From contig CAVZJB010000007.1 of NCBI GenBank assembly GCA_963775425.1, positions 160,001-224,000 on the forward strand: a DNA stretch of 64,000 bases, in the 5' to 3' direction. The stretch's first letter is position 1, and every line of letters begins with the position of its first letter. A model generated the notes under the pieces. It searched no databases, was not told where the DNA came from, and saw only the letters and a list, made by a program, of their open reading frames with translations. Positions 30,069-63,500 of this stretch are shown here, one piece after another. The position numbers and the translations under genes are program-made. The stretch comes from an uncultured delta proteobacterium. Lineage in GTDB: Bacteria; Myxococcota; UBA727; VGSZ01.

Positions 30069-31181
30069 TCAGTTGTGTTGGTTGAAGAGGGTGCGGATCG
30101 CGTTCTTCCGCGAGTGGTTGGCCTGCCAGAAGGTGTACGTCGAGTGGCTCACCAGGCCGTTCCTGCCGTTGAGCCAGTCCTGCACCTGGGCGCGCAGCGA
30201 CGCCTTCATGTGGACGCCGACGTAGATGGCGTGGATGTGGCGGATCTCGCTCGAGGGCCAGCCGTCGTGGCCGGGGTTGCGGAAGAAGGCCGCGAAGCCC
30301 TGGTCGGCGAGCCGCGTGAGGAGCGCGCGCACCTGCGCGTTGCTCATGCCGGCGGTCCGCAGGTCCGTCGCCGCGCAGTAGGCGAAGCCGCCGGCGGTGC
30401 CGTCCTGCGCGTGCGTGCCCGCCGACGCGGCGGCGTTGCCGATGGTCTGCGAGATCCCGCTCGCGCTGATCCCGGCGCAGCGCAGGTGATCGGACTGCCT
30501 CGGCGCCAAGCCCCACCGCAGCTGGCTGTGGTGCGCGCAGGTGTCGGTGCTCTCGCAGCGATCGTCGTGACCCGGCGCCGCCACGATGCACGACGCGTCA
30601 CAGCGCTGCGCCACCGCCGCCGGCCCGGGGCCGTTGCACTGGTACAGCACGTTGGCGTTGGCGTGCGTCACCTTGTCGCCGCCGCAGTAGTAGCCGACGT
30701 GGGCGTTGGCGTCGCAGCGCGGCGGCGGCGGCGCGCTGCAGTAGTCGTCGTGGCCCGCCGCGGCGACATGGCAGCCGTTCGCGCACGACCTGACCACGGT
30801 GGCGGGGCCGGGCCCGTGGCAACGGTAGAGGGTGTTGCGGTTGCCGTTGTTGACCTTGTCGCCGCCGCAGTAGTCGCCCGTATGCGCGTTCGATGCGCAC
30901 CTCGCGCCGGTCGAGAACGCTTGCACGTCGGTGTCGCCGCCGGCGTCGTCGTAGGGGACGTCCTCGTCGTCGACAGGCGGCGGCTCCTCCTCGCCCTCGT
31001 ACCCGGGGCCCTCCTCGCCGACCCCATTGTCCACGAGCGACATGCCGTCGTCGGCGGGCTCGTCATCGGGGGGCGCGACCCCGTCATCCAGCTGTCCGTG
31101 CACGGTTACGACGGTCGGCCCGCACGCGGTGAAGACAACGACGAGCGCGCCGACGAGGGGGGCGAGGAGTGGTTTCGTCAT
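30069..31181 (-). CDS. Lipoprotein: acidic linker, two six-Cys modules, endolysin-like zinc peptidase domain
   Basis: Lipobox FTAC; two 54-aa repeats; C-terminal ASAGTH...AATDL...GFAAFFR...HIHA...QVQDWLNGRNGL, recalling LAS/M15-type phage lysin domains. Confidence 0.72.
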   Translation of the reverse strand: MTKPLLAPLVGALVVVFTACGPTVVTVHGQLDDGVAPPDDEPADDGMSLVDNGVGEEGPGYEGEEEPPPVDDEDVPYDDAGGDTDVQAFSTGARCASNAHTGDYCGGDKVNNGNRNTLYRCHGPGPATVVRSCANGCHVAAAGHDDYCSAPPPPRCDANAHVGYYCGGDKVTHANANVLYQCNGPGPAAVAQRCDASCIVAAPGHDDRCESTDTCAHHSQLRWGLAPRQSDHLRCAGISASGISQTIGNAAASAGTHAQDGTAGGFAYCAATDLRTAGMSNAQVRALLTRLADQGFAAFFRNPGHDGWPSSEIRHIHAIYVGVHMKASLRAQVQDWLNGRNGLVSHSTYTFWQANHSRKNAIRTLFNQHN

Positions 31182-31217
31182 GGGCGGCACTATGGAGGCT
31201 CGCCGGCGCGCGCGTCG

Positions 31218-31243
31218 TGGGTCGCGTGGTGTCCTGTGGTGTC
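31218..31243 (-). promoter_or_regulatory. Three 10-bp-phased GACACC-like direct repeats upstream of the peptidase lipoprotein gene
   Basis: Minus strand GACACCacagGACACCacgcGACCCA, ending 23 nt before a -10-like CATAGT (31189-31194). Confidence 0.7.
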
Positions 31244-31290
31244 TCCCCGGATTCCCTCGGTCGAACGCGTGGTTGCGTGTGCTCCTGGCT

Positions 31291-31299
31291 TGCTAACGT
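31291..31299 (+). promoter_or_regulatory. Extended -10 element of a probable leaderless transcript
   Basis: TGcTAACGT, 6 nt before GTG 31306. Confidence 0.55.
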
Positions 31300-31305
31300 G
31301 ATGTC

Positions 31306-31785
31306 GTGATGACGGCGCTGGCCCGCTTGATCGTCGCGGCGCTCCTCGCGCAGGCCGCGGCGTGCTCGCTCTTCTCCTCCGACGTCGCCTGCGACGACCG
31401 CACGCCGTGCCCCGTCGGCGCCTGTGCCCCGAGCGGCTTCTGCGCGGCCGGCGAGGGCAAAGGCGAAGGTGAAGGTGAAGGTGAAGGCGAAGGAGAGGGC
31501 GAGGGAGAGGGCGAAGGAGAGGGCGAAGGAGAGGGCGAGGGAGAGGGCGAAGGAGAAGGTGAAGGTGAAGGTGAAGGAGAAGGCGAAGGAGAGGGCGAGG
31601 GCGAGCCTGCGGCGACGTGCGACGCGGACGCCGTGCTCGGCGACTACTGCGCCGGCGACAAGATCACCAACGGCGCACCGGGCATCCTCTATCGCTGCCA
31701 GGGGCCGGGGCCCGCCGAGGTGCACGAGACCTGTGCCACGGCCTGCGTGATCGCGGCGGCTGGGCAGGACGACTTCTGTCGATGA
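31306..31785 (+). CDS. Small lipoprotein: Cys knot, (GE)n linker, one six-Cys module
   Basis: Lipobox AAAC; CDDRTPCPVGACAPSGFC; 26 G-E/K dipeptides; module homologous to those of the divergent gene; ATGA overlap with the kinase. Confidence 0.8.
   Translation: MMTALARLIVAALLAQAAACSLFSSDVACDDRTPCPVGACAPSGFCAAGEGKGEGEGEGEGEGEGEGEGEGEGEGEGEGEGEGEGEGEGEGEGEGEGEGEPAATCDADAVLGDYCAGDKITNGAPGILYRCQGPGPAEVHETCATACVIAAAGQDDFCR
31450..31605 (+). repeat. (Gly-Glu)26 coding hexanucleotide repeat
   Basis: Mixed synonymous units ggcgag/ggtgaa/ggagag/ggcgaa; one unit is GK. Confidence 0.9.
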
Positions 31786-33473
31786 GCGATCGCCCGAAGC
31801 GCTTCGGCGACTACACGCTGCTGACGAAGCTCGCGGAGGGGGGCATGGGCTCCATCCACCTCGCGAAGCGCGTCGGCTTTCGCGCGGACATCCAACGTTT
31901 TCTCGTGGTGAAGAAGCTCCTGCGCGGGCGCGCCGGCCCGCGCGATCTGCGCCGCTTCGAGGACGAGGCGCGCATCGCGGTCACGCTCAACCACCGCGCG
32001 CTGTGCCAGGTCTTCGACGTCGGCATCGTCGACGACGAGCACTACCTCGCGATGGAGCTCGTCGAGGGCGTCACCCTCCAGCGCGCCGCCGCCGCCGCGC
32101 GCTTCAGCGCCGCAGTCGCCCTCTACGTCATCGACGAGATGCTCGACGCGCTCGACTACGCGCACAACCTCAGAGACCCCGCCACCGGCCAGGCGCTCCA
32201 CATCGTCCACCGCGACGTCTCGTCGCACAACGTGATGCTCTCGTTTTCGGGCGCGGTGAAGCTCATCGACTTCGGCCTCGTGTCGTCGACGCTGAAGCAA
32301 GAGAAGACCGTGGGCGGTGTCGTCGTCGGCAAGCTCGAGTACATGTCGCCGGAGCAGGCGCGGGCCGAGCCCCTCGACGCGCGGTCCGACGTCTACGCCG
32401 CCGCCGTCATCGCGTACGAGCTCCTCAGCGGCCGGCGCTTCTATGAAGGGCTCTCTGCAGGCGCGGTGATGACGGCCGTCGTCGACGGCAGCTACCTGCC
32501 TTCGTTCGACGGCGTCGATCCCACCCTCGTCGGACCGCTCACGCGCGCGCTCACTGGCGAGCGAGAGGAGCGCACCCCGTCCTGTGCCGCTCTGCAAGCC
32601 GAGCTCGCCGCGGCGGGGCTGCCGCGCGGGTCGAGCCGCGACCTGCGCGACGCGCTCCAGCAAGCGCTCCCCGAAGAGCAAGCGCGGCTCGAGGCGCTGA
32701 TGCGGAGCTTCCGCGACGTCGGCGTCGAGCCGCCGCCCGACGTCGCCACCAGGGTCAGGCACATCGCGCGCTCCGACGAGGACGTCAGCGCCGCTCCCCC
32801 TGCGCAGCCCGCGGTGACGGCAGGGCCCTCGCCCGTCCCGCGGGATCCGTCGATCGCCGCGCCCGACATCTTCACCGAGCCGACGCTCATCGCCCGCGCC
32901 CGCCGGCCCGCGAACGCGCGTCGCGACGGAGCGCCGCCCCGGCTCGCCCTCGGCGCGCTCGCCGTGCTCGCGCTCGGCGTCGTCATCACCCTCGCCTACG
33001 TCGTCGTCGCACCCGCCGGCGAGCAGACCGTCACAGGCGCCACCGCCGACGCAGGCGGCGTGACGGGGCGCGCGCCGCAGGCCGCCGACGCCGGCGACGT
33101 CGCCGCCAGCGCTGTCGAAGGCGACGAAGACGACGTCGCCGCCAGCGCCGTCGAAGGCGGAGGAGACGGAGGCGACGAAGCCGGCGCGGGCGGCGCAGGC
33201 GGCGCGAACGTCGTCGACGCCGGCGGCGCAGGCGGCGCGAAGCTCGTCGACGCCGGCGGCCACCGAGCGCACAAGGCGAGGCGCGTGCGGCCGCCCGACA
33301 CGCCGCTGCCCGACCTCGCCGCGCACCTCGACTACCTGGCGCGCTGGTGCGCGCGGACGCCCTGCGCGCGACGCGTGCTCGCGGCGCGCGGCCGCGTCCC
33401 CGTGCTCGACGTCGCGGGCCTCCACGCCCTGCGCCGCGACGCCGAAACATGCGTGGTAGAGTGCCGCCGTTGA
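31782..33473 (+). CDS. Membrane-anchored Ser/Thr protein kinase
   Basis: LAEGGMG, VVKK, HRDVSSHN, DFG, GKLEYMSPEQ; TM LALGALAVLALGVVITLAYVVVA; acidic linker; small Cys-containing C-terminus. Confidence 0.92.
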   Translation: MSDRPKRFGDYTLLTKLAEGGMGSIHLAKRVGFRADIQRFLVVKKLLRGRAGPRDLRRFEDEARIAVTLNHRALCQVFDVGIVDDEHYLAMELVEGVTLQRAAAAARFSAAVALYVIDEMLDALDYAHNLRDPATGQALHIVHRDVSSHNVMLSFSGAVKLIDFGLVSSTLKQEKTVGGVVVGKLEYMSPEQARAEPLDARSDVYAAAVIAYELLSGRRFYEGLSAGAVMTAVVDGSYLPSFDGVDPTLVGPLTRALTGEREERTPSCAALQAELAAAGLPRGSSRDLRDALQQALPEEQARLEALMRSFRDVGVEPPPDVATRVRHIARSDEDVSAAPPAQPAVTAGPSPVPRDPSIAAPDIFTEPTLIARARRPANARRDGAPPRLALGALAVLALGVVITLAYVVVAPAGEQTVTGATADAGGVTGRAPQAADAGDVAASAVEGDEDDVAASAVEGGGDGGDEAGAGGAGGANVVDAGGAGGAKLVDAGGHRAHKARRVRPPDTPLPDLAAHLDYLARWCARTPCARRVLAARGRVPVLDVAGLHALRRDAETCVVECRR

Positions 33474-33486
33474 CACGAGCCCGCTG

Positions 33487-34476
33487 TTGATCGTCGCCGT
33501 CACGCTGTTCAGCTCCTTGCTCTCGTCCGCGCCGACGCCGGCCGCTCCAGTCGCGCTGTTCGGGTCGTTGCCCGCGGCGACGACGCCGACCGTCGCCGTC
33601 ATGCCCGTGCGCGGTCCCGACCCCGAGCCAGCGCAGGCGGCCATTCGCGGCGCCGTCGCTGCGAGCACCGAGGTGAACGCCGTCGCCACCGACGCCCTCG
33701 GCCACCTCATCGAGCGCGCCGCCGCGAGCGGCATCTCCTGCGAGCCCACGCGTGCCGACTGCGCCACGCGCATCTGCGCCTTCGGCGGCCTCGACTTCGT
33801 GATCGTCGCGCGCCTCGAGGACGCGCGCGCCACGCTCTCCCTGCACGACTGCGTCGACGGCCGCCAGGTGCGCGCCGCCGCCGCCGTCCTCGGCGCCGGC
33901 GCGGCCGCGCGCGACGCCGGGCTCGCCGCGCTGACCCACGCGGTGCTCGGCGAGACCGAGGCGCGCGGGCGGCTCGCCGTCACCGCGCCGGCGGGCGTCG
34001 TCGTCGTCGACGGTGTCCCGGGCGGCCCGGCGCCCATCGCCTTCAGCCTCGTCGCCGGACCGCACGAGGTCGCGTGGCGCCCGAGCCGCGGCGGCGCGCC
34101 GCAGCGGCGGACCGTCGAGGTCCCGGCGGCCGCGACGGTCGACGTCGCGTTCGCCGCCGACGACGGCGAGACCCGCGCGGGCGGCGCGCTCGCGTCGTCA
34201 CCGTCATCGCCGTCGTCGTCATCGTCGTCGTCGTCGCTCTGGCCGCCGCTCGCGCTCGGCGGGCTCGCTGTCGGGAGCGCGCTCGCCGTCGGCGGCGGCG
34301 TGGGCGCGCTGATCGTGGCGCCCACGGAGCGCGCGCGCTACTCCGCGCGCCAGTACAACGACGCCGTCACGCTCGGGCGCGCGTCCCTCGGCGTCGGCGT
34401 GGTCGGCGCCGTGCTCGCCGTCGTCGCCGGCGCCGCGCTCGTGTGGGTGCCCGCGGACGCCGAGGGCTCCCGGTGA
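33487..34476 (+). CDS. Secreted PEGA-like domain protein with a Gly-rich hydrophobic C-terminus
   Basis: Signal-like N-terminus; C-x5-C-x4-C cluster; GRLAVTAPAGVVVVDG...GPHEV. Confidence 0.6.
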   Translation: MIVAVTLFSSLLSSAPTPAAPVALFGSLPAATTPTVAVMPVRGPDPEPAQAAIRGAVAASTEVNAVATDALGHLIERAAASGISCEPTRADCATRICAFGGLDFVIVARLEDARATLSLHDCVDGRQVRAAAAVLGAGAAARDAGLAALTHAVLGETEARGRLAVTAPAGVVVVDGVPGGPAPIAFSLVAGPHEVAWRPSRGGAPQRRTVEVPAAATVDVAFAADDGETRAGGALASSPSSPSSSSSSSSLWPPLALGGLAVGSALAVGGGVGALIVAPTERARYSARQYNDAVTLGRASLGVGVVGAVLAVVAGAALVWVPADAEGSR

Positions 34477-37202
34477 CCTCGCCGCGCGTGCCGTTGCTCC
34501 TGCAGCCCGCGAACCCGCCGGTGCCCTTCGTGGGCCGCGCGGCGGAGAGCGCGCGCCTCGCGACCTTGATCGAGCGCGGGCCGATCGCCATCGTGTGCGG
34601 GCTCTCGGGCGTGGGCAAGTCCGGCGTGCTCACGGCCACGCTGGCGACGCGCTTCGCCGACGAGCGCGAGCGCACCGTCGTCGTCGACGCCAACGACGAC
34701 GGCGGCGGCGTCGCCGGCGCGCTGCGGGCGCTCCAGCAGATCGGTGTGCGGCCGCCGGCGCATGATGCGCCGGCCGCGCGACGGTCTGCGCACGTCGCTC
34801 ACGACCCACGCGCCTCGACGCCCGCCGCTGCGGCCGCGGCCGGCGCTTTGGTCGAAGCGCTCGAGTCGGAGGGGCTCTGGCTCCTCGTCGAGAACCTCGA
34901 GCGGATCGACGACGAGCTGCGCGAGGCCCTCACGCTCGCCCAGCGCCACTGTCGAAGGGCGCGCATCCTCTGCGTCGTCCGCGAAGACCCGCGCGCCCCC
35001 GCGCTCGCCCCTCACACGATCACCATCGGTGCGCTGTCGGCGGCGGAGCTGCGCGCGCTGCTCGACGAGATCGAGCCCGGGCTCTCGGAGACGGAGGCCG
35101 CCGGCATTGTCGCGCACGCCAAGGGCTCGCCGTGGCGTCTGCGGCAGCTCTCGCTCGGCGGCGTCGTCGACGAGGCGGGCCCCGAGAAGTCGTTGCTGAT
35201 GTTGGCGCCGGTGGCGGTCGGGTTGCTGCGGACGCTCGCGCTCCTGCCGTCGAGCGTGCCGCAGCCGGTGCTCGCGCGCGCGACGCGGCTGCCGTCGAAC
35301 GACGCCGTGGAGTCGCTCGCGCGCCGCGGGTACGTCGAGATCTCCGCGCGCGGCGTCCGCTTGCACGACGCCGCCCGCCCGCTCGTCGAGGCGCTCCTCG
35401 ACGCCGACGAGCGCGCCGCGCGCGCGCACAAGCTCGCGCGCGCGATCGCCGACGCCGGCAGCGCCGAGCTCGGCGCGGCCGCCCTCGGCTTGCTGCGCGC
35501 CGCAGGCGACGCGGACGCCGTGCGGATCTTCCTCGAGCGCCACGGCGCCGCGCTGTGCGACGCCGGCCACGCCGCGGCGCTGCTCGACGTCGTCACCCAC
35601 GTCGGCGCGGCCGCGACGGACGGCGCGCCGGCGCTCGAGGCGTGGGCGTGCCGGCTCGCGCTGGACGCCGGCGGCGACGCCCTCGTCCGCGCCGCCGTCC
35701 GCGCCGACGACGCTGACGACGCCGACGCAGCCACGCTCGCGCTCCGCGCCGCGGTGCTCGCCGCGCGGGGCGAGCTCGCCCGCGCGTGCGCCGTCGCCCG
35801 CGCGGCGCTCGCGGCGCGCTCGTCGACGGGCGGGCCGGACGCGGGCACGGCGCTGCGCGCCCTCGAGGTCCTCCTCTGCGCGCGCGACGACGACGGCGAC
35901 CGCGCGATCCTCGCGGGCCTCCGGCAGGACGCGCTCGCGAGCGAGGCCGACGCGGTGCGCCGGGCGGCCTTGGCGCACACGCCCGACGGCGACGGCGACG
36001 CCCTCGTACACCGCTTCGCCCGTCTGCCGCGCGAAGGGCAACACGCGCTCGTCGCGCTCGTCGCCCGCGCGCTGCGCACCGCGGGCGACGCGCGCGGCGC
36101 CCAGGCGGTCCTCGCGATGACGCCGGCAGCGCCGGCGGATGAGCAGCGATATGCGCCGGCGACGGCGAGCGCCCGAGCGGCGGAGCTCGAGCGCGCCCAC
36201 GTCGCGCTCGCGCTCGGGGACCTCGCCGGTGCCGGCGCCCGCTTCGCGCGCGCCGCCGCGGCCGCGGCCACCACGCCGCTCGACAACGCCGAGGCGCGCC
36301 TCGGGGCGCTCGCGGTCCGCCTCGCCCGCGGCGAGCTGCGGGGCGTCGACGCCGAGCTCGCCGCCGTCGTCGCGGTGGTGCAGGAGCGCGAGGCGCCGCC
36401 GGCGCTGGCGCGGATGGCGGACGCGCTGACGACGAGCCTCGCCTTGCTCGCGGGCAAGAGCGCCCACCGCCCGGTGCCGTCGCTCGAGGAGGCGCGCAAG
36501 GCGCGGGCGCGCGCCCGCGACGCGGGGCTGGTCATCGACGCGCTCGACGCCGCCGTCGCCTGCATCGACGCCGCCATCATCGCCGGCGACCGCACCTGCG
36601 TCGCGGTCGAAGCCGAGCAGCTCGCCGCCGCGAGCGCGAGCGTGGGGAGCCGCCGCTACGCGCTGCACGCGCGCTTCGGCGCGCTGGCTGCGCGGGACGG
36701 GGCGGAGGCGAGCGCGTTCGTGCAGCTCGCGCAGGCCATGCAGCACAGCCCGATCGTCGCGCGGAGGGCCACGGCGCTCCTCGGTGAGGCCGTGCCGCTC
36801 GACGACGTCGATCGCGCCGTGCTCGCGGCGATGCCGGGGTACGCCGCGCGACCGCCGCCGGCGTCGGTGGTGCGGCAGGCCGCGGGGCCCGAGTGGACCG
36901 TGGACGCGGCCACCATGCGCATCATCCTCGTCGACGGCCGCACCGTCGAGCTCGCTCACAGGAAGGTGCTCTTCGACGTCCTCGCCACGCTCTGCGCCAA
37001 CGGCGGCGCGGCCACCAAGGAGCAACTGCTCGAGCGCGCGTGGGGCGTGCGCGACTACCACCCGCTCCGGCACGACAACCGGCTCAAGGTGGCCGTGCGC
37101 AAGCTCCGCCGCCTCCTCGAAGAGACGCTCGGCGACGATCCGATCGAGAGCGCCGACGACGGATATCGCCTGCGCGGCAAGGTGCGCTTCCTGCGCGGGT
37201 GA
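34473..37202 (+). CDS. P-loop NTPase (STAND-like)/helical repeat/C-terminal OmpR-type winged-helix regulator
   Basis: FVGRAAE, Walker A GLSGVGKS, WLLVENLE, GSPWRL; C-terminus ATKEQLLERAWG...NRLKVAVRKLRRLL...GYRL; GTGA overlap. Confidence 0.8.
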   Translation: MTSPRVPLLLQPANPPVPFVGRAAESARLATLIERGPIAIVCGLSGVGKSGVLTATLATRFADERERTVVVDANDDGGGVAGALRALQQIGVRPPAHDAPAARRSAHVAHDPRASTPAAAAAAGALVEALESEGLWLLVENLERIDDELREALTLAQRHCRRARILCVVREDPRAPALAPHTITIGALSAAELRALLDEIEPGLSETEAAGIVAHAKGSPWRLRQLSLGGVVDEAGPEKSLLMLAPVAVGLLRTLALLPSSVPQPVLARATRLPSNDAVESLARRGYVEISARGVRLHDAARPLVEALLDADERAARAHKLARAIADAGSAELGAAALGLLRAAGDADAVRIFLERHGAALCDAGHAAALLDVVTHVGAAATDGAPALEAWACRLALDAGGDALVRAAVRADDADDADAATLALRAAVLAARGELARACAVARAALAARSSTGGPDAGTALRALEVLLCARDDDGDRAILAGLRQDALASEADAVRRAALAHTPDGDGDALVHRFARLPREGQHALVALVARALRTAGDARGAQAVLAMTPAAPADEQRYAPATASARAAELERAHVALALGDLAGAGARFARAAAAAATTPLDNAEARLGALAVRLARGELRGVDAELAAVVAVVQEREAPPALARMADALTTSLALLAGKSAHRPVPSLEEARKARARARDAGLVIDALDAAVACIDAAIIAGDRTCVAVEAEQLAAASASVGSRRYALHARFGALAARDGAEASAFVQLAQAMQHSPIVARRATALLGEAVPLDDVDRAVLAAMPGYAARPPPASVVRQAAGPEWTVDAATMRIILVDGRTVELAHRKVLFDVLATLCANGGAATKEQLLERAWGVRDYHPLRHDNRLKVAVRKLRRLLEETLGDDPIESADDGYRLRGKVRFLRG

Positions 37203-37260
37203 CCGCCTCCCGCGCGCCTCGCACCGCCTCGCGTGGTGCGGGCGCGGGCGGCGCGCGGGC

Positions 37261-37286
37261 GACGCCCGAGGACACCGCCCGACACC
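37261..37286 (+). promoter_or_regulatory. Three 10-bp-phased GACACC-like direct repeats upstream of the EEP lipoprotein gene
   Basis: GACGCCcgagGACACCgcccGACACC, ending 21 nt before a -10-like CACAAT (37308-37313). Confidence 0.7.
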
Positions 37287-37319
37287 CCTGCCCTCCTGCG
37301 CGGCGGACACAATGGCGCC

Positions 37320-38435
37320 ATGTGGAACAGCAAGCTCCGCCCGCTCCTCTCGCTGCTCGCGCTCGCTCTCGGCACCGTCGCCTGCGGCGGCCCGCTGGAC
37401 GACGCCGCCCCCGTCGCCGTCTACGCCGACGAGGGGAGCGTCCCCGCAGATGAGCCGCCGGGCGACGACGTCGACGCCGACGACGTCGACGTCGGCCCGA
37501 GCGCGGACGTCGCCGACGACGACGTCGCCGACGACGGCGACGTGGGCGACGTGGGCGACGTGGGCGACGTGGGCGACGTGGGCGACGTGGGCGACGCGGG
37601 CGACGCGGGCGACGGGGGCGATGAGGCGGGTGACGCCGGCGCCGGCACGCTCGGCGGGCAGGTGGCGGCGCTTGGCCGGTGCCCGGCCTACACCACGCGC
37701 CACCTGCAGGCGTCGATGCAGCACACGGACTCCGTGGCGCAACGGCGCGCGGCGATCGACAAGGCCTTTCGCAACCCCGACGGCAACAGCCCGGACACCA
37801 TCAGTTGGACCGAGATCGAGACGCAGGCGCAGATCGATCGCATCAACAACAGGAGCGGGTGGGCGACGTATTGGCCGGTTCACCACAGCCACCCCGTGGT
37901 GAGCGCGCGCAACGCCGTCCCGATCTCGTGGAAGAAGAGCGTCTATCGCTTCATCAGCGGCAGCTCACACAAGGCGTCCGACGGCTTGGCCGGCGTGTCG
38001 CCGAACCGCTACGTCACGCGCGTGCGCCTGCGCCACATCCCGAGCGGGACCATCGTCATCCGCGTCGCGACCCACACGGTCTCCGCCGTCGATCACCCCA
38101 CGAACCACATCGCCTATCGCCTCGCCACGCACCGCAAGGACATCGCGATGTTCAACACGGTGATGGCCGGCGCGGCGTTCCCCGTGATCGGCTCCGGCGA
38201 CTTCAACACGGCGCACTTGCGCAGCAAGCTCCGCGACGAAAACCACGGCGTGCAGCCGTACGTATTCGACGTGCCCGCGCACGGCGGCTCGCACGGCAGC
38301 CACCTGCTCGACTGGATCGTGCGCCGAAAGAGCGACGGCGACGCGTACCGCCTCAGGAGCGTGCGCTTCATCGATCTCAGCCCGTCCGACCACAAGGGCG
38401 TGCGCGCTCGCTACACGTATCGCCCCTGCGGTTGA
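37320..38435 (+). CDS. Lipoprotein with an acidic linker and an endonuclease/exonuclease/phosphatase (EEP) domain
   Basis: Lipobox TVAC; EEP residues WTE, ATH, GDFN, LDW, SDH. Confidence 0.82.
   Translation: MWNSKLRPLLSLLALALGTVACGGPLDDAAPVAVYADEGSVPADEPPGDDVDADDVDVGPSADVADDDVADDGDVGDVGDVGDVGDVGDVGDAGDAGDGGDEAGDAGAGTLGGQVAALGRCPAYTTRHLQASMQHTDSVAQRRAAIDKAFRNPDGNSPDTISWTEIETQAQIDRINNRSGWATYWPVHHSHPVVSARNAVPISWKKSVYRFISGSSHKASDGLAGVSPNRYVTRVRLRHIPSGTIVIRVATHTVSAVDHPTNHIAYRLATHRKDIAMFNTVMAGAAFPVIGSGDFNTAHLRSKLRDENHGVQPYVFDVPAHGGSHGSHLLDWIVRRKSDGDAYRLRSVRFIDLSPSDHKGVRARYTYRPCG
37536..37625 (+). repeat. 9-bp coding tandem repeat (GDV)6 plus four variants
   Basis: Six exact ggcgacgtg units, then ggcgacgcg x2, ggcgacggg and ggcgatgag. 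Confidence 0.9.
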
Positions 38436-38450
38436 GCGCCCGCGAGGGCG

Positions 38451-39506
38451 TCAGGCGATGGTGACGCCCTTGTCGAGGTAGACGTCCTGGATGGTGTGGA
38501 GCAGCTCCACACCTTCCCTGCGCGACTTCTGGAACGCCTTGCGGCCCGAGATGAGGCCCATGCCGCCCGCGCGCTTGTTGACGACGGCGGTGCGCACGGC
38601 CTCGGCGAGGTCCGTGTCGCCCTTGGACTCGCCGCCCGAGTTGATGAGCGGCGCGCGACCCATGTAGCAGCACGCGATCTGGTAGCGGCACAGGTCGATG
38701 GGGTTGTCGCTCGTGAGGTTTTCGTAGACGAGCTTGGAGGTCTTGCCGAAGCCGATGGCGTTGTAGCCGCCGTTGTTGCTCGGCAGCTTCTGCTTGATGA
38801 TGTCCGCCTGCAGCGTGGCGCCGAGGTGGTTGGCCTGACCCGTGAGGTCCGCCGAGGCCTCGTAGTTGACGCCGTCCTTCTTGAAGGCGCTGTTGCGGAC
38901 GTAGCACCACAGGACGGTGACCATGCCGAGCTCGTGCGCGCGGGCGAAGGCGTCGGACACCTCCTGCAACTGGCGGCGCGAGTTGGGGTGCCCCCAGTAC
39001 ACGGTGGCGCCCACCGACGTGCAGCCCATCTCGAAGGCGCGGTCGACGGTGGTGAACATGGTCTGGTCGGGCTCTTGCGGCAGCGACAGCAGCTCGTTGT
39101 GGTTGAGCTTGAGCATGATCTGGATCTTGTGCGCGTACTTGCGGGCGATGGATCCGAGGACGCCGTACGTCGAGCACACGGCGTTGCAGCCGCCCTCGAT
39201 GGCGAGCTCCACGATGTTCTTCGGATCGAAGTACTCGGGGTTCGGCGCGAACGACGCGCCCGCCGAGTGCTCGATGCCCTGGTCCACGGGGAGGATGCTG
39301 ACGTAGCCGGTGCCCGCCAGGCGGCCGTTGTTCATGATCGCCTGGAAGTTCCGCATCACGGCGGGGCCGCGGTCGCTGGAGCTGAAGACGCGGTCGACGA
39401 AGTCGGGGCCGGGCAGGTGCAGGCTCTCCTTCGGGATGGTCTTGCTCGTGTGGTTGAGCAGGCTCTCGTCTTTGCCGAGCAGCGACGTGATCTTCTGAAG
39501 CGACAT
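38451..39506 (-). CDS. fbaB: Class I fructose-bisphosphate aldolase (DhnA/FbaB type)
   Basis: [44 protein letters not shown]; GGAGG before ATG 39506. Confidence 0.95.
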
Positions 39507-39543: not shown

Positions 39544-40686
39544 TCACCGCCTCCGAAGCAGCGCCAGAGCGACCGCGGCCACGGCGACGACCGCAGCGGA
39601 CACGGTGAGCGCCGCACGTCCCGACACCTGCTCCCAGACTTCGCCGATGAGCAGGCCCGACGGCAGGGAGGCGAGACCGGTGAACAGGTAATACGCGCCG
39701 AAGGCACGGCCGCGCGCCTCGTCGGGCGCGGCGTTTCGCACGAGCACCTTCTCCACCGGCTCGCGCGCCCCGTGGCCGACGCCGACGACGACGGCGCCCA
39801 CCCAGATGATGGCGGGGCTCTGGACGGTGAGGAGCGCGAAGCCCGCGGCCACCGCGGCCCACGCGGCGACGACGGCGAAGCGCGAGTGGACGTTGTACCG
39901 GCCCATCTGGCTGGCGGCGATGACCTTGGCGAGGTGCAGGACGCTCCAGAGCGCCGGCAAGAGCGGCTCGGCGAGCCCGAGGTCGCGGCCGCGCACGAGG
40001 AGGAAGCTGTCGCCGGCGACGCCGACGGAGAACAGACCGACGACGGACAGGAGCGCCCACAAAGACGCCGGCAGCTTCACGCGCGGTCGCTTCTCGCCGG
40101 CGGCGGCGGCGGCGGCCTTTCGCGGCTTTTCCTTCGCGAAGAAGAACAGGGTGAGCACGGCGACGGCGCCGGGGATCCAGGCGAGCGCGATGGCCTCGCG
40201 GGCGCTGAGCCCGGCGAAGAGCAGCCCGGACGCGACGAGCGGACCGAAGAACGCCCCCGTGTGGTCCATCATGCGGTGGAACGCGTACGCCTTGGGCGCG
40301 TCGTCGGGGGGGACGGCGTCGGCGATGAGGGCGTCGCGGGGCGCGGAGCGCAGGCCCTTGCCCACGCGGTCGACGGCGCGGACCAGCACGGCGTGCCAGG
40401 GGGCGGTGGCGAACGTGACCAGCGGGCGGACGGCGGTGGACAGCGTGTAGCCGGCGAGGACGAAGGGCTTCCGTTTGGCCGCGCGATCGGAGAGGCCGCC
40501 GAAGACCAGCTTCAAGACCGCGGCCACGGCGTCGGCGATGCCCTCGAGCAGGCCGACGGCGACGGGCCCGGCGCCCATGCCGCCGATGAGCAGGGACGGC
40601 AGCAGCGGGAGGATCATCTCCGACGACACGTCGGTGAAGAGGCTCACGAGCCCGAGCGCGATGACGAGCCGCGGAAGCTTGCGCAC
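39544..40686 (-). CDS. MFS transporter
   Basis: [35 protein letters not shown]; about 12 TMs. Confidence 0.92.
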
Positions 40687-40792
40687 GCGCCATCCTGCGA
40701 ACCCCCGCCCCGCGCGTCAAACGCGGCGCGCTCGGCCATCCCTCGTGGGGCGCATGTGGCGCGCGCCGCCGGGTTCATGCGACGGTCATCCC

Positions 40793-42964
40793 GTGGTGCT
40801 CGACATCGTCGTCGCGCTCTCCGCCGTGGCGAGCGGCCCCGGCTTCCCGGCGTTCGACGCCGGCGTCGAGCGCGTGCTCGCCGGCAGCGGACCCGCGTAC
40901 GCCCGCGGCGGGAGCGAGGACGCCGCCGGCGGGGCCTGCGAACAGGCGCGCACGCACGGCGTCTTCTCCGTCGACGGCGGCGCGCTCCGCTTGCAGGCGC
41001 CCGCGGCGTACGGCGAGAGCACGTGGGTGTGCGACGCCCGCGTCGACGACGGCGTCGCGCGCATGAAGATCCACGCGGGCACGCGCACCGACGTCAGCCT
41101 GCTCCTGCGGGCCAAAGCCGCCGCACCCTGCCGGGGCCCCGCGTCGGCGTGCGCTCACCCCGGCGGACCACGAGCCGGCGAGCTCGAAGAGGGCTACGCC
41201 GTCACCGTCGACGACACCCGCGGGCGCGCGCTCCTCAAGCTCTCGCGCTTCGAGCACGGCGTGCCGCGCTTGCTCGGCGCCGAGGCCCGCATCCCCGGCT
41301 TCAGGAGCGGCGCCGACACGGAGCTCGTCGTCGTCGCCGCCGGGCCGTTCCTGTCGGCGACGCTGTACGACGCCGACACGCTCGCGCCCCGCGCGCACGT
41401 CGAGGTGCACGACGGCCGCGCCCGCGCCGGCGGCGTGGGCGTGCGCTTCGGCAAGAGGAGCGACGCCGCCGTGACGCTCTTGTCCGCGGGCCCGGTGCGC
41501 TCGTCGACGACGGCGGCGCGCGACGGGGGCGGACACACCGGGGGTGCCGGGGACGTCGACGAGGACGCCGGCGCCGGTGCCGAGCGCCTGGTGATCTTTC
41601 CGCCCGCACAGCGCCCGCGCGTCCCCCGGGGGCTCCACGCCTATGCGCGCGGCGACGCCGCCGCCGTCTTGACCGACCCCGTCGGCCTCGAGCGCCTCCT
41701 GCGCGCCGGCGTCGTCCCCCTCGAGGTGCACGCGCAGATCCCCTGGATGGACGAGGACGCGGAGCTGCGCGCCCACCTCGGCCAACCGCCGAAGAAGACG
41801 GCGCGCGGCTTCGTCATCGACGAGAGCTACAAGGACGCGGACATGGTCGCGGCGCTCCTGCACGGCTACGCCGAGCGCTACCCCGGGCTCACCCGCCTCG
41901 AGCAGATCGGCACCACCACCGACGGCCGCGCGCTGTGGGCGCTCGCGATCGGCGAGCACATCGACGGCGACGTCGACACCGTCCTCCTCGACGGCGCCCA
42001 CCACGGCGGCGAGCTCATGTCCATCGAGGTCGTGCTCGACGCCGTGCAACAGCTCCTCGAGCACCCCGGCGACTACGACGACGTCCTCGAGCGCGTCACC
42101 GTGTGGTGCGTGCCCCTCGTCAACGTCGACGGCAACATGCGCTACATCCACGACACGCGCGACTACGACCGCAAGAACGGCCGCGACGTCGACGAAAACG
42201 GCAGGGTCGACGGCTGGGACGGCGTGGACCTCTACCGCAACTACCCCGCCGACTGGGGCGGCCTCGGCGAGGTCGGCTCGCGCTCGAACCCGTTTCACTA
42301 CCGCTACCGGGGGCCGGCCGCGGGGAGCGAGCCGGAGCCGCAGGCGATGATGAAGCTGGCGGCGCGCGAGCGCTTCACGGCGTCCATCGACTTCCACACC
42401 AACGCCACGGCCATCCTCGTGCCCTACACCGATCCGGACATGAAGAGCCCGGAGCCGAACGAGGCCTGGGACGTGGCCGAGGAGGTCGCCCGCGGCCTGC
42501 CTGTGCAAATTAACGGTAAGCGCTACACCGTCCGAAGGAACCTCTACGCCGTCGACGGCACCTTCCAGGACTGGCTGCGCGAGACCTTCGGCACCGTCGC
42601 CCTCCTCGTCGAGGGCCCCGAGAACAACCCCCTGCCCTACGCCCGGCACCGCGGCGCCAACGTCGCCGGCACGCGCGGCACCTGGCAGCACCTGCTTTTG
42701 CGCACCGTCCGCGGGCCCGGCGTCGCCGGCCACGTCCGCGGCGACGACGGCGCGCCCCTCGAGGCGCAAGTCTCCGTCGACGAGCAGCAGGCCGCGCGCG
42801 GCGAGCGCTGGACCTCCCGCCCGCGCGACGGCCGCTTCCACCGGTTGCTGCCGGCGGGCACGTACACCCTGCGCGCCCGCGCCGCCGGCTACGCCGACAA
42901 GACCGCGCGGGTCGTCATCAAGCCCGGCAAGACCGCGGTGGTCGAGCTCGTCCTGTCCCGCTGA
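40793..42964 (+). CDS. M14 zinc carboxypeptidase with an N-terminal beta domain and a C-terminal carboxypeptidase-regulatory-like domain
   Basis: HHGGE (HxxE), RKN, GVDLYRNY, SEPE, IDFH; C-terminus PAGTYTLRARAAGY. Start uncertain. Confidence 0.87.
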   Translation: MVLDIVVALSAVASGPGFPAFDAGVERVLAGSGPAYARGGSEDAAGGACEQARTHGVFSVDGGALRLQAPAAYGESTWVCDARVDDGVARMKIHAGTRTDVSLLLRAKAAAPCRGPASACAHPGGPRAGELEEGYAVTVDDTRGRALLKLSRFEHGVPRLLGAEARIPGFRSGADTELVVVAAGPFLSATLYDADTLAPRAHVEVHDGRARAGGVGVRFGKRSDAAVTLLSAGPVRSSTTAARDGGGHTGGAGDVDEDAGAGAERLVIFPPAQRPRVPRGLHAYARGDAAAVLTDPVGLERLLRAGVVPLEVHAQIPWMDEDAELRAHLGQPPKKTARGFVIDESYKDADMVAALLHGYAERYPGLTRLEQIGTTTDGRALWALAIGEHIDGDVDTVLLDGAHHGGELMSIEVVLDAVQQLLEHPGDYDDVLERVTVWCVPLVNVDGNMRYIHDTRDYDRKNGRDVDENGRVDGWDGVDLYRNYPADWGGLGEVGSRSNPFHYRYRGPAAGSEPEPQAMMKLAARERFTASIDFHTNATAILVPYTDPDMKSPEPNEAWDVAEEVARGLPVQINGKRYTVRRNLYAVDGTFQDWLRETFGTVALLVEGPENNPLPYARHRGANVAGTRGTWQHLLLRTVRGPGVAGHVRGDDGAPLEAQVSVDEQQAARGERWTSRPRDGRFHRLLPAGTYTLRARAAGYADKTARVVIKPGKTAVVELVLSR

Positions 42965-60500: not shown

Positions 60501-63500
60501 CTCGAGCTGCACGGGCCGCGGGTTGTGGGAGTCCTCGACGACGACGATCTGCGCCGCGCCCGACACGTTCCCCGCCTTGTCACGGCCGCGCACCGCGAAC
60601 GTGGTGGACTGATCCTGCGCGAGGTTGAAGGTGAAGACGCCGTTCCCGGGGTTCGCCGAGAACGCGCCGACGATGCAACCGCTCCCCGTGCAGCTCGCGG
60701 TCTCGTAGGTCTCGAAATTCGCGTCGAACGCCGTGGGCGAGCTCGGATCCAGGGAGAAGGTGAACGTGTCGGCGTTGACGAAGTGCGTGGTGCCGCCGCC
60801 GAGGATGATGGGCGCCTGTGGCGGCGTGGTGTCCTTGGTGATGGTCACCGCCACCTCGGGGCTCAGGTTGTCGGCGAGGTCGACGCCGCGCACGCGCACG
60901 ATGTTGGCGCCGTCGCCCGCGGACAGGGGCACCGAGAACGACAAGCCGGCGAACGGGGTGAACGACGACACGGTGCCGCCGACGAACTCGTGGTGATCGA
61001 AGTTGGTGTCCGACGAGCCCGACGTCAAAGACACCGTGAACGCCGCCTGGTTGGTGAACGTGTTCTGGGTGGCGAGGATGGGCGTGGTGGGCGCCACGGT
61101 GTCGACGGAGATGCTGTTGTCCACCGTGGCGCTCTTGTTGCCGGCGGCGTCGCTCACCACGGCCGCCACCGTGTGCGCGCCCTGACCCGGGGGCAACACG
61201 CAGGTGCTGACGTTCGCGAACGAGACGAAGGGCTTGCCCGTCGGATCGCCGTCGCAGCCGATCTGCATGAGGCTCGGGTTGTCACCGATGCACTGCAGTT
61301 GCACGGTGACGACGGAGCTGTTGGTGAAGCCGTTGGGCGTGCCGCTCGCGCCGACGAGATCGATCTGCGAGCTCACCGAGCACGGCGCCACGGTGTCATT
61401 CAAGAACGTAGCCGTGGTGAAGGCGCTCTGGTTGCCCAGCGCGTCGATGGCGGCCACGCGGAAGATGTGCCGCACGGCGGCGCCGTCGACGAGGTCTCCC
61501 TTCACGTCGATGGTGGTGGCGCCCTGCGTGACGGCCACCAGCGGCGCGCCGAAGCCGAGCGAGTCGGTGGTGAGCTCGAAGCGGTAGGTGAGCGCGCCGG
61601 TGCCGCCCTCGTTCGTCCACTTGAGCGGGATGGTGGACGCGAGCGTCTGGGACACCGGGTCCTGGGGCGGCACGATGGTCGGCGGCGTCGGCGGCGCGCG
61701 GTCCACCTGGAAGTTGCTGGTGGCCGAGGTGGTGCTGTTGCCGGCACCGTCCACGGCGCGCACGCGCCAGTGGTACACGCCGTCGCCGAGCGAGAAGGGC
61801 ACGTCGAACGCGCTGCCGTCGGGGCGGGGCAACGAGAACAGCGGCGACGTGAACGCCACGTCGGTGCCGAGCGCCACGTCGACGAACTGCGTGACGCCGG
61901 TGCCCGTGTCGGTGCCGGGGGTGAACGACAGCGTGGGGAAGGGATCGTTGATGCACGGCTGCGCCACCGTGCACGGCGGCGGCGTGGTCACGAGCGCGCT
62001 CCCGCTGTGGATGGCGACGGTGAGGCCCGTGGGCGCGCTGGGCGCGGTGGCGTCCGGCGTCACGCGCGGCGCGTCCGTGAACGTGACGACGCTGGTGCGC
62101 CCCGACGCCTTGCGCGCCACCACGATCCACTCGAGCGGCACCTCGGGCAGCGCCGCCGACGGCGTGAAGCTCAGCCCCGTGACGCCGGCCTGCGACAGCA
62201 CGGTGCTCTGGTCGCTCACCTTGCGCACGATGAGCGTGTAGCTGACGGCGCCGTTGACGGCGGCCCAGGAAAACGCAGGCTTGCGCGTGCTCACCAGGGC
62301 ACCGCTCTGCGGCGCCAGCGGCTGCGCGAGCGGCGGATCGGTGGGATCGACGAACACGGTGTCGGTGGTGGACGTCAACAGGCCCGACTGCGCCTTGAAG
62401 CAGCCGGTCACCGAGCGCGTGCCCTCGCCGTCGGCGACGGTGACGTCCTGCACGGAATTCGTAGACACGGCCAGCGGCACGAAGGACGCCGCCGGCACCG
62501 ACGCGCAGTCGAGCGGCGCCTGGCCGAACGCGAGCGCCGCGATGGACGGATCGTCGCTGCGGAACGTGGTGGACAAGACGCCGTTGCCGGCGGTGGAGAA
62601 GTTGCCGACGGCGCGGGCGATGGCGACGGTGCCGGTGGGGCCGACGAGGTCGAGGCTGATGTCGGTGCAGGTGCTGGCGGTGCGGCCGGCGGCGTCGGTG
62701 ACCTCCACGCACACCGTCTTCAGCTCCTCGGTGGTGGGCGCCGCGAGCGTGGTGGTGCGCTGGGTGGTGAACGGCTCCTGGGCGCCGGTGAAGGTGGCGG
62801 TGGTGTTGGCGATGCGCATGGAGACCACGCCGCCGAGCGGCGACGTGAGGTCGTCCGACGCGCCGACGGTGAGGCTGACGGTGGCGTTGGTGGTGAAGGC
62901 GTCCCCGTTGTTGACCGCGAGGGTGACGCTGGGCGCGGCGGCGTCGAACACGATGGTGTCGCTGACGGGCGCGGGGTTGCCGCCGGCGTCGGTGCTCACG
63001 TTGCCCGCGCTGTCCTTCAGGCACACCTGCGCCGTGTACAGGCCGGCGCCCGCGCTGCCCGTGCCGGGGATGGTGAGCGTGACGTCGGGCGGGCTCGGCA
63101 GCGCGACGTAGCCGGTGGCGGACGCGCAATCGAGCGGCGTCACCGTGCCCGGCCCCGACAGCGACGACTTGATCAGCGCCGTGTCCGCCGGCGCCGACAC
63201 CGTGGCGGTGAGCGCGCGCGTGGTGGTGAAGGTGGCGCCGCCGTTGAGCGTGACCGAGCCGGTGGGGAATTCCTCGTCGAGGACGGTGGTGGCCGTGGCG
63301 AGCGCGGTGTTGTCCGCGGCGTCCCGCGTGCACACCGACACCGTGCGCGCCTCGGGCCCGCCGCTCGTCGACGCGAACGTCACCTGCGACGGGAACGCGC
63401 TGCCGCTCGTGAACGTGACGCCGCCGCAGTCGGCGGGGAAGCCGCTCGCGGCCGTGGTGACGGCGAAGGCGGCGACGTCGCTCAAGGTGTACGCGTAGCT

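Follow-up and report, generated by a model that had tools for sequence, protein, structure and literature searches.

The stretch of DNA analysed here, called the window below, spans 64,000 nucleotides (positions 160,001 to 224,000 of contig CAVZJB010000007.1) of the 8.26-Mb genome of an uncultured member of the Myxococcota, and its centre holds a regulatory cassette flanked by genes for exported hydrolase-like lipoproteins. The G+C content of the window is 72–80%, and one coding frame per stretch was chosen by analysis of G+C at third codon positions (GC3). Positions 30069–38435 are filled by six genes, which we name A to F:

Gene A, 30069–31181, minus strand: 370-residue lipoprotein, called from the open reading frame and GC3
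Gene B, 31306–31785, plus strand: 159-residue lipoprotein, (GE)n spacer followed by a single six-Cys module
Gene C, 31782–33473, plus strand: 563-residue Hanks-type Ser/Thr kinase, ATGA overlap with B
Gene D, 33487–34476, plus strand: 329-residue exported or membrane protein, 13-nucleotide gap after C
Gene E, 34473–37202, plus strand: 909-residue STAND nucleoside triphosphatase (NTPase) and winged-helix regulator, GTGA overlap with D
Gene F, 37320–38435, plus strand: 371-residue lipoprotein with an EEP-fold domain

The genes B, C, D and E form a closely coupled core, as the first-pass annotation of this DNA had described, with the ATGA and GTGA overlaps at the B/C and D/E junctions and the short gap between C and D. 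The same annotation saw in A and F two lipoproteins built alike, and pattern matching and composition agree: each has a lipobox, an acidic linker and a catalytic-type domain. The lipoboxes of A (FTAC), B (AAAC) and F (TVAC), identified by pattern match only, follow an N-terminal hydrophobic segment and fall within the first 22 residues. The 40-residue windows richest in aspartate plus glutamate reach fractions of 0.43 in A, 0.50 in B and 0.45 in F. An alternative GTG start for A lies at 31190.

Phased GACACC repeats precede both hydrolase genes in the same orientation, about 35–55 nucleotides before the start of A or F, in agreement with the earlier reading. The window holds exactly two copies of GACACC-N4-GACACC, one at 31228–31243 on the minus strand and one at 37271–37286 on the plus strand; in 100 shuffles of the window the mean was 0.02 copies and none reached two. 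The promoter features are as follows:

31218–31243, minus strand: promoter repeats of A, three units in 10-bp phase (GACACC-acag-GACACC-acgc-GACCCA)
37261–37286, plus strand: promoter repeats of F, three units in 10-bp phase (GACGCC-cgag-GACACC-gccc-GACACC)
31189–31194, minus strand: putative -10-like hexamer CATAGT of A, 23 nucleotides after the third unit and 7 nucleotides before the ATG at 31181
37308–37313, plus strand: putative -10-like hexamer CACAAT of F, 21 nucleotides after the last unit and 6 nucleotides before the ATG at 37320

In the promoters of relatives, GACACT takes the place of the CATAGT of A. Since the -10-like hexamers lie only 6–7 nucleotides before the ATG and no Shine-Dalgarno sequence precedes A or F, both mRNAs may be leaderless or carry a very short leader. 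If GACACT, CATAGT and CACAAT act as -10 elements, the repeat units would centre near -60, -50 and -40, and the proximal unit would lie over the -35 position.

Genome-wide, the exact pattern is present in three copies, and about 3.3 are expected from the hexamer density. The third copy is part of an unrelated dispersed repeat that is also found at two other places. This element, CCCCATTGTnCTGACACCAATTGACACCAATTGACGGGACGC, lies at 274910–274932 (minus strand) of contig C18, 253849–253871 (plus) of C3 and 61591–61613 (plus) of C9; its GACACC units are separated by an AATT spacer, and it is unrelated to the cassette promoters. Elements of the same type are also found on contig C223 of the related genome G002 and contig C1 of G006, which brings the family genomes that carry them to at least three. 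(G-numbers denote genomes of the same Myxococcota family, 11 in all including the present one, G000; L-numbers denote loci or contigs.) A site with one mismatch, GACTCC-N4-GACACC at position 20131 of contig C14 in G000, was rejected as a member of the regulon; it lies only about 21 nucleotides from a start codon, a geometry different from that of the cassette promoters, so the site is probably unrelated. The gene that follows it (L171, 269–1834) encodes a 521-residue lipoprotein with a DUF2341 domain.

The genes B, D and E recur together in six cassettes, namely those of G000, G002, G004 (where the cassette is split over two contigs) and G010 and the loci L052 and L054. A adjoins in five of the six, kinase C is present in five of the six, and B orthologues with one or two six-Cys modules occur in all of them. 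The gene order varies among A-B-C-D-E, A|B-C-D-E, A|C-B-D-E and A-B-D-E. As far as sequence comparison can tell, the cassette is supported as a functional unit.

The promoter element is conserved with the cassette. The repeat lies upstream of the A orthologue in all five cassettes that have A (G000, G002, G004, G010 and L054), among proteins that are only 40–70% identical. In an alignment of twelve promoters from five genomes and three contigs from metagenomes or metagenome-assembled genomes, both GACACC units are invariant and in register, and the layout in the family is GACACC-N4-GACACC-N4-GACCC(G), 22–23 nucleotides, GACACT, GGAGG and ATG. G010, which belongs to another genus, has the same promoter before two more lipoprotein genes. 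The product of one combines CHAP (E 1.8e-11), Golvesin_C and SH3_3. The second gene encodes a lipoprotein with an acidic linker and an Exo_endo_phos domain (E 1.4e-14), which tblastn did not match to F at E ≤ 1e-4. Another contig carries a near-duplicate of promoter and gene start. In this second genus, too, wall peptidases and an EEP enzyme are thus linked by the GACACC element, although the genes are different ones. That the repeats tie the hydrolase genes to the cassette, as had been proposed from the window alone, is borne out by the element before A in every cassette with A and before the CHAP and EEP lipoprotein genes of G010, and these comparisons lend good support to a regulatory coupling of the hydrolase genes to the cassette.

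The motif also tracks gene E across genomes. Sites matching the 23-nucleotide pattern with zero mismatches were found in all four family genomes with a full-length or N-terminal match to E (G000, G002, G004 and G010) and in none of the five without any E match, with the proviso that these genomes are kin and the co-occurrence counts are not independent. The count excludes the dispersed AATT-type element and the tandem arrays of G007 described below, and G003 and G007, whose E matches are C-terminal or weak, were not counted. A orthologues are confined to the same four of the 11 genomes. Beyond the family, exact repeats lie about 70–250 nucleotides from two distant E-like genes (L039 and L071) and about 60 nucleotides before a lipoprotein start codon. 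In L039 the repeat is 67 nucleotides past the E stop, before a lipoprotein with an acidic D/S linker, and in L071 it lies between an E-like gene, which encodes TPR and winged helix only, and a gene for a 1623-residue adhesin-like lipoprotein. In 809 kb of E-family loci there were four exact sites versus none in the reversed control and about 0.3 expected, and one-mismatch sites in these loci were not above the reversed control (10 versus 9).

Two further observations concern relatives with partial or unusual loci. G007 carries tandem arrays of 4–5 GACACCGTGC units with a 10-bp period at 484–526 of L101 (G007:C684) and 382–417 of L096 (G007:C329). One array lies directly before a gene for a 295-residue membrane protein whose N-terminal part appears D-like by eye (a C-x-C stretch and C-terminal transmembrane segments); the other lies about 150 nucleotides before a pyruvate-kinase-like gene, and the E-like match in this genome is only weak. 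In L016 (G003:C53, 9562–10661) a 98-residue piece, which contains a frame change, matches E in the C-terminal winged helix only. In back-to-back orientation to it runs an open frame whose start falls midway in a CHAP-like sequence, and a match to the outer domain of the kinase lies 8.5 kb off; L016 looks like a decayed cassette.

Gene E encodes the only DNA-binding protein in the cassette. It matches nSTAND1 with 31.6 bits (Pfam cut-off 27.1), carries the Walker A motif GLSGVGKS and a helical middle part, and ends in an OmpR/PhoB-type winged helix (Trans_reg_C, 26.8 bits against a cut-off of 26.2, residues 833–892), which is the most conserved part of the E family. No Pfam match to BTAD, FHA or Response_reg was found in E. 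By its domain content E is AfsR-like in outline, but it is not a member of the SARP/AfsR family and not a two-component response regulator. The family comprises 560 representative clusters at E ≤ 1e-3, whose members are unnamed or misnamed in the sources, and relatives carry AAA_16 or NB-ARC according to precomputed Pfam assignments. The orthologues in G002 and G004 (L018 and L019, genus g3) are only about 440–475 residues long; NTPase and winged helix are retained, but the helical middle part of about 450 residues, the presumed sensor region, is missing.

E is probably the protein that binds the GACACC repeat. It is the most likely candidate because no other DNA-binding protein is encoded in the cassette and the winged-helix class binds tandem direct repeats, and also because the motif tracks E across genomes and adjoins the two distant E-like genes.

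Lipoprotein A combines two small cysteine-rich modules with a C-terminal domain:

Residues about 92–150 and 153–212 of A: two six-Cys modules, 54 residues each
Residues about 215–370 of A: C-terminal domain, 155 residues

The six-Cys module is common to A, in two copies, and B, in one. The relation between them, suggested in the first-pass annotation, is plainly one of homology, with tblastn identities of 55–65% between modules. By eye, the B modules have A-V-V/L-G ahead of the second Cys and the A modules do not; an old divergence between A-type and B-type modules is suggested. Homologues of A number 455 at E ≤ 0.001, all unnamed or "hypothetical" and mostly from Myxococcota by source name. 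Some homologues of the six-Cys module have four to five modules ahead of a Peptidase_M23 domain, and in others the C-terminal domain of A is joined to SH3_3 or Tachylectin. These combinations indicate that the six-Cys module behaves like a targeting domain of wall hydrolases, and the shuffling of module and C-terminal domain gives independent support for a wall-lytic role.

The C-terminal domain of A is likely a LAS-type wall peptidase. The AlphaFold model of A has a mean predicted local distance difference test (pLDDT) of 81, with values above 90 in the folded parts, and when residues 219–348 were searched with VIA against 48,161 chains, LAS enzymes headed the list and made up 14 of the top 23 rows. 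The best structural matches come from the LAS metallopeptidases (VanY/VanX of M15, phage L-Ala-D-Glu peptidases, VldE, MepA and the Hedgehog N-domain); the top matches include the Hedgehog N-domain, a Streptomyces DD-peptidase, VanXY, Ply500, LysB4 and VldE, and further ones LdcB, the T5 and RB49 endolysins, VanX and MepA. H257, D260, D273, E312, H315 and H317 are near-invariant among 52 sequences, and D260 is invariant. The His, Asp and E-x-x-H-x-H of A come in the order expected of LAS enzymes, and the order His...Asp...Glu-x-x-His agrees with what we take to be the M15 motifs. Language-model leads from Atlas pointed to Peptidase_M15_3 (0.87) and VldE (0.85), both under the 0.9 mark of the tool. 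Unlike established LAS enzymes, the domain has no sequence-profile match, scores only Z 3.4–4.7, shows an unusual His-to-Asp spacing and lies outside any Pfam model. The six-Cys module and the C-terminal domain had no match in Pfam, NCBIfam or PHROGs, and a sequence-profile search of the PDB with A returned nothing. Foldseek with the whole model against the PDB and a viral library gave no match at E ≤ 0.001, where the multi-domain query probably dilutes the score. A tblastn search with the catalytic domain against 50,697 phage records gave chance-level hits only, the best (E = 1) on RecA-like genes. The Zn peptidase proposed for A at first sight is thus weakly supported: LAS folds lead the structural list, and sequence databases and Foldseek add no match.

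The fold of lipoprotein F is clearer. Its parts are:

Residues about 25–120 of F: acidic linker
Residues about 123–367 of F: EEP-fold phosphoesterase domain, 245 residues

The AlphaFold model of F, built on its 29 homologues (none of them named), has pLDDT above 90 over residues 123–367. Foldseek against the PDB returned 296 matches at E ≤ 0.001, and the rows listed are all EEP-type (E 3e-14 to 2e-11, probability 1.00), including Bacteroides EEP proteins, TDP2, nocturnin, CNOT6L and a mannose-6-phosphatase. This confirms the EEP fold called from the sequence, a four-layer alpha/beta sandwich. E165, D294, N296, D357 and H358 are invariant in 30 sequences; we presume, from the general EEP motif and not from superposition, that they fill the catalytic and metal-binding roles of Glu, Asp/Asn pair and Asp-His. 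The Foldseek matches and the invariant residues together point to F as an EEP phosphoesterase. Pfam found no match in F itself, Exo_endo_phos (PF03372) included; that domain is carried by the distant F homologue P0148 (E 1.9e-12 to F), and a profile search of PDB sequences with F gave 3g6s at E 0.21. The substrate class cannot be told from structural neighbours as diverse as TDP2, nocturnin, CCR4-type nucleases and a sugar phosphatase. The G+C fraction is 0.66–0.70 over F and the adjoining DeoC aldolase gene (37500–39500) versus 0.75–0.80 nearby; together with the distribution of F in the family, given below, this may reflect a recent insertion at F.

The other three proteins of the core are envelope proteins by prediction. 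Kinase C has a Pkinase domain (Pfam, E 6.8e-29) in which the Lys (LVVK), HRD, DFG and SPE motifs are all present, one transmembrane segment at about residues 392–410, an acidic and Gly-rich outer linker and a conserved C-terminal four-Cys domain of about 60 residues that is 56–67% identical among orthologues. The catalytic loop of the L052 and L054 orthologues reads HRDISPQN, with Ser in place of Lys as in C itself, and the Gly-rich loop of C is degenerate (EGGMGS). The N-terminal domain of protein D contains two invariant Cys; the protein also has a PEGA-like stretch, a linker rich in Ser and, towards its C-terminus, two transmembrane segments. The PEGA-like character that had been attributed to D holds weakly: the only match is in the L052 orthologue (E 0.082, 13.3 bits against a cut-off of 20.8), and D itself has none. 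Complex prediction with the periplasmic part of D, the outer domain of C and the B module scored 0.01 against a mark of 0.32, which speaks neither for nor against binding.

The genes around the cassette are unrelated to it, with a DAO/Rieske oxidoreductase on one side and genes for the DeoC aldolase, an MFS protein and a Peptidase_M14 protein on the other, and these flanking genes are not common to the cassette in the relative G002. The Peptidase_M14 protein, of 829 residues and with CarboxypepD_reg domains as well, is encoded at 40475–42964, 2 kb from the cassette, and no GACACC repeat precedes its gene. PADLOC run on A to F matched generic kinase models for C only and gave no match for A, B, D, E or F. 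In L052, positions 1–2733 upstream of the cassette encode a large protein with many Cys-rich repeats of about 22 residues (G-F-x-D-D-G-x-G-x-C).

Several known systems share parts of this arrangement. In the pho box, tandem direct repeats are bound by PhoB and the proximal unit replaces the -35 element. The repeats here are likewise phased by about one turn with the proximal unit at -35, as in class II activation by PhoB and OmpR, but E has no receiver domain, and an NTPase switch, not Asp phosphorylation, would control it. In Mycobacterium, EmbR is an OmpR-like winged-helix regulator controlled by PknH, a transmembrane Ser/Thr kinase encoded next to it. The locus resembles that pair in encoding a winged-helix regulator close to a transmembrane Ser/Thr kinase that may control it. 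Unlike E, EmbR consists of an N-terminal winged helix, BTAD and FHA and has no NTPase, and no FHA was detected in E.

The closest comparison in logic is with AfsK and AfsR of Streptomyces, which the first-pass annotation had aptly drawn. E, too, fuses a STAND-type NTPase and a helical part to an OmpR-type winged helix, and a Hanks kinase gene is nearby. The winged-helix dimer of AfsR sits on two 11-bp repeats that overlap the -35 element, the NOD and TPR parts restrain the protein, ATP releases it and AfsK phosphorylates it (PMC10936776). In both systems, direct repeats in one-turn phase reach the -35 of promoters with a weak -10 (for AfsR, PMC10936776). The differences are in the C-terminal position of the winged helix in E (a reversed order), the lack of a detected BTAD, the 10-bp unit with its GACACC core in place of the 11-bp afs box, targets that are exported hydrolases instead of antibiotic pathways, the different phylum, and a kinase that is missing in one cassette. 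In Firmicutes, the WalRK system with PknB/Stk1 is reported to have an OmpR-family regulator that acts on direct repeats, controls autolysins and receives Ser/Thr kinase input (PMC13689823). The same combination is found here, namely an OmpR-type regulator, direct repeats, putative wall-hydrolase genes and a membrane Ser/Thr kinase. WalR, unlike E, is a classical response regulator, and an essential one, that governs how the cell builds its own wall. The present cassette is an accessory trait without a histidine kinase, and a phosphoesterase is among its co-regulated products. The cassette resembles AfsK/AfsR and WalR/PknB in logic and is a member of neither family.

The reading that we favour, with modest confidence for the whole, is an E-driven GACACC regulon of exported hydrolases with envelope input through B, D and C. 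The cassette would be an accessory one of an uncultured Myxococcota family, in which E, through its STAND NTPase and winged helix, binds the three GACACC units in 10-bp phase, with the proximal unit over -35, and in the bound state switches on genes for exported lipoprotein hydrolases. In G000 the predicted targets are A, with two six-Cys wall-binding modules and a LAS-type Zn peptidase, and the EEP phosphoesterase F; in the related genus they would be A, the CHAP peptidase and another EEP enzyme, reached via the same promoter. The signal would most likely come from the envelope via the co-inherited B and D and, in most cassettes, C. Here B would be a lipid-anchored copy of the wall-binding module of A on a long (GE)n tether, D a membrane-anchored periplasmic protein and C a Ser/Thr kinase in the membrane whose outer domain is small and rich in Cys. 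Sensing may fall to B, C and D, C may phosphorylate E, and the output may serve prey lysis or action on other bacteria. A more specific version, in which foreign wall or enzyme-released fragments occupy the B module and the signal passes through D (and C where present) to E, so that more lytic lipoproteins are made from the GACACC promoters in a "bait-and-lyse" feedback and new enzymes such as F join simply by gaining the repeat, we consider unlikely in this full form.

Several of our results weigh against this account. The peptidase call for A stands on Z scores of at most 4.7, none reaching 5, together with conserved residues, and hhalign found no significant similarity between the A domain and 22 VanY domains of the family's genomes (probability 0.15%, E 0.39). 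In the catalytic loop of kinase C, HRDVSSHN, a Ser replaces the Lys that is usual in Hanks kinases. The G010 cassette (A-B-D-E) has no kinase gene between B and D, and elsewhere in this 76%-complete genome there is only a 33%-identical match to the outer domain of the kinase, so the kinase is not obligatory. Both A and the repeat are missing from the L052 cassette. No orthologue of F was found in the ten other family genomes, where weak matches fall in the acidic-linker region (residues 54–142), and F is absent beside E in every other cassette. This speaks against a fixed module bracketed by A and F; F is specific to G000 and apparently joined the regulon in this lineage only. The expectation that homologues of the regulator would have conserved neighbours holds for the six cassettes and fails in the wider E family, where about 60 loci with 30–50% identity had no A, B, D or F neighbours and a kinase lay within the fetched flanks of 11, roughly the chance level for kinase-rich myxobacterial genomes. 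In four genomes with distant E homologues, including Minicystis rosea and a Sorangium, exact repeats numbered 0–3 per genome, which is chance, and did not lie near E; the motif thus belongs to a subfamily and not to all E-like proteins.

The same circuit could act on the producer's own envelope, in wall remodelling, stress repair, developmental autolysis or a change of spore coat or cell shape, which we regard as possible but doubtful. All products are lipoproteins and may stay in the envelope of the producer, B has the same wall-binding module and would sit beside the producer's own wall, and OmpR-type regulators of autolysins with Ser/Thr kinase input are known from WalR/PknB (PMC13689823). 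The cassette is patchy, however, being present in 4 of the 11 family genomes, and an accessory trait fits this distribution better than core wall growth. The co-regulated set, with three types of wall peptidase and EEP phosphoesterases, varies by genome and looks more like a lytic cocktail. Combinations of M23, SH3 and lectin modules are, as general knowledge, typical of bacteriolytic enzymes, and they too speak against an own-envelope role.

It is distinctly improbable that another regulator encoded elsewhere binds the repeats, with B to E merely co-regulated cargo or an unrelated pathway. In favour of this reading, G000 and its relatives would have many OmpR-family response regulators, as is general among myxobacteria, and in G002, G004 and G010 the repeat precedes the A-B-(C)-D-E string, so that E could be a target instead of the binder. 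Against this, the motif follows E through the family genomes (four of four versus none of five) and stands beside two distant E-like genes in other lineages, of which L071 keeps only TPR and winged helix. That repeats and adjacency have no function at all, and arose by chance or compositional bias in DNA of 72% G+C, is scarcely credible. The exact pattern is indeed not over-represented genome-wide, but two of its three copies are separated by 6 kb and occupy equivalent places before their genes, none of the window shuffles produced such a pair, and the pattern is in register in the twelve aligned promoters.

A search of open titles and abstracts, with subscription journals not covered, found no description of such a system. 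The timing of lytic-enzyme release by myxobacteria is poorly understood, and the locus offers a compact regulon with a 10-bp-phased motif, clear target enzymes and a single candidate activator, whose large family is uncharacterised. It also brings forward two domain families that lack a Pfam model, the six-Cys module and the catalytic domain of A, and an example of a regulon that would recruit new members by promoter gain. If the enzymes are bacteriolytic, they may be a source of new lysins, and if the feedback from foreign wall or released fragments were true, the cassette would be a dedicated switch by which predatory bacteria sense prey or competitors.

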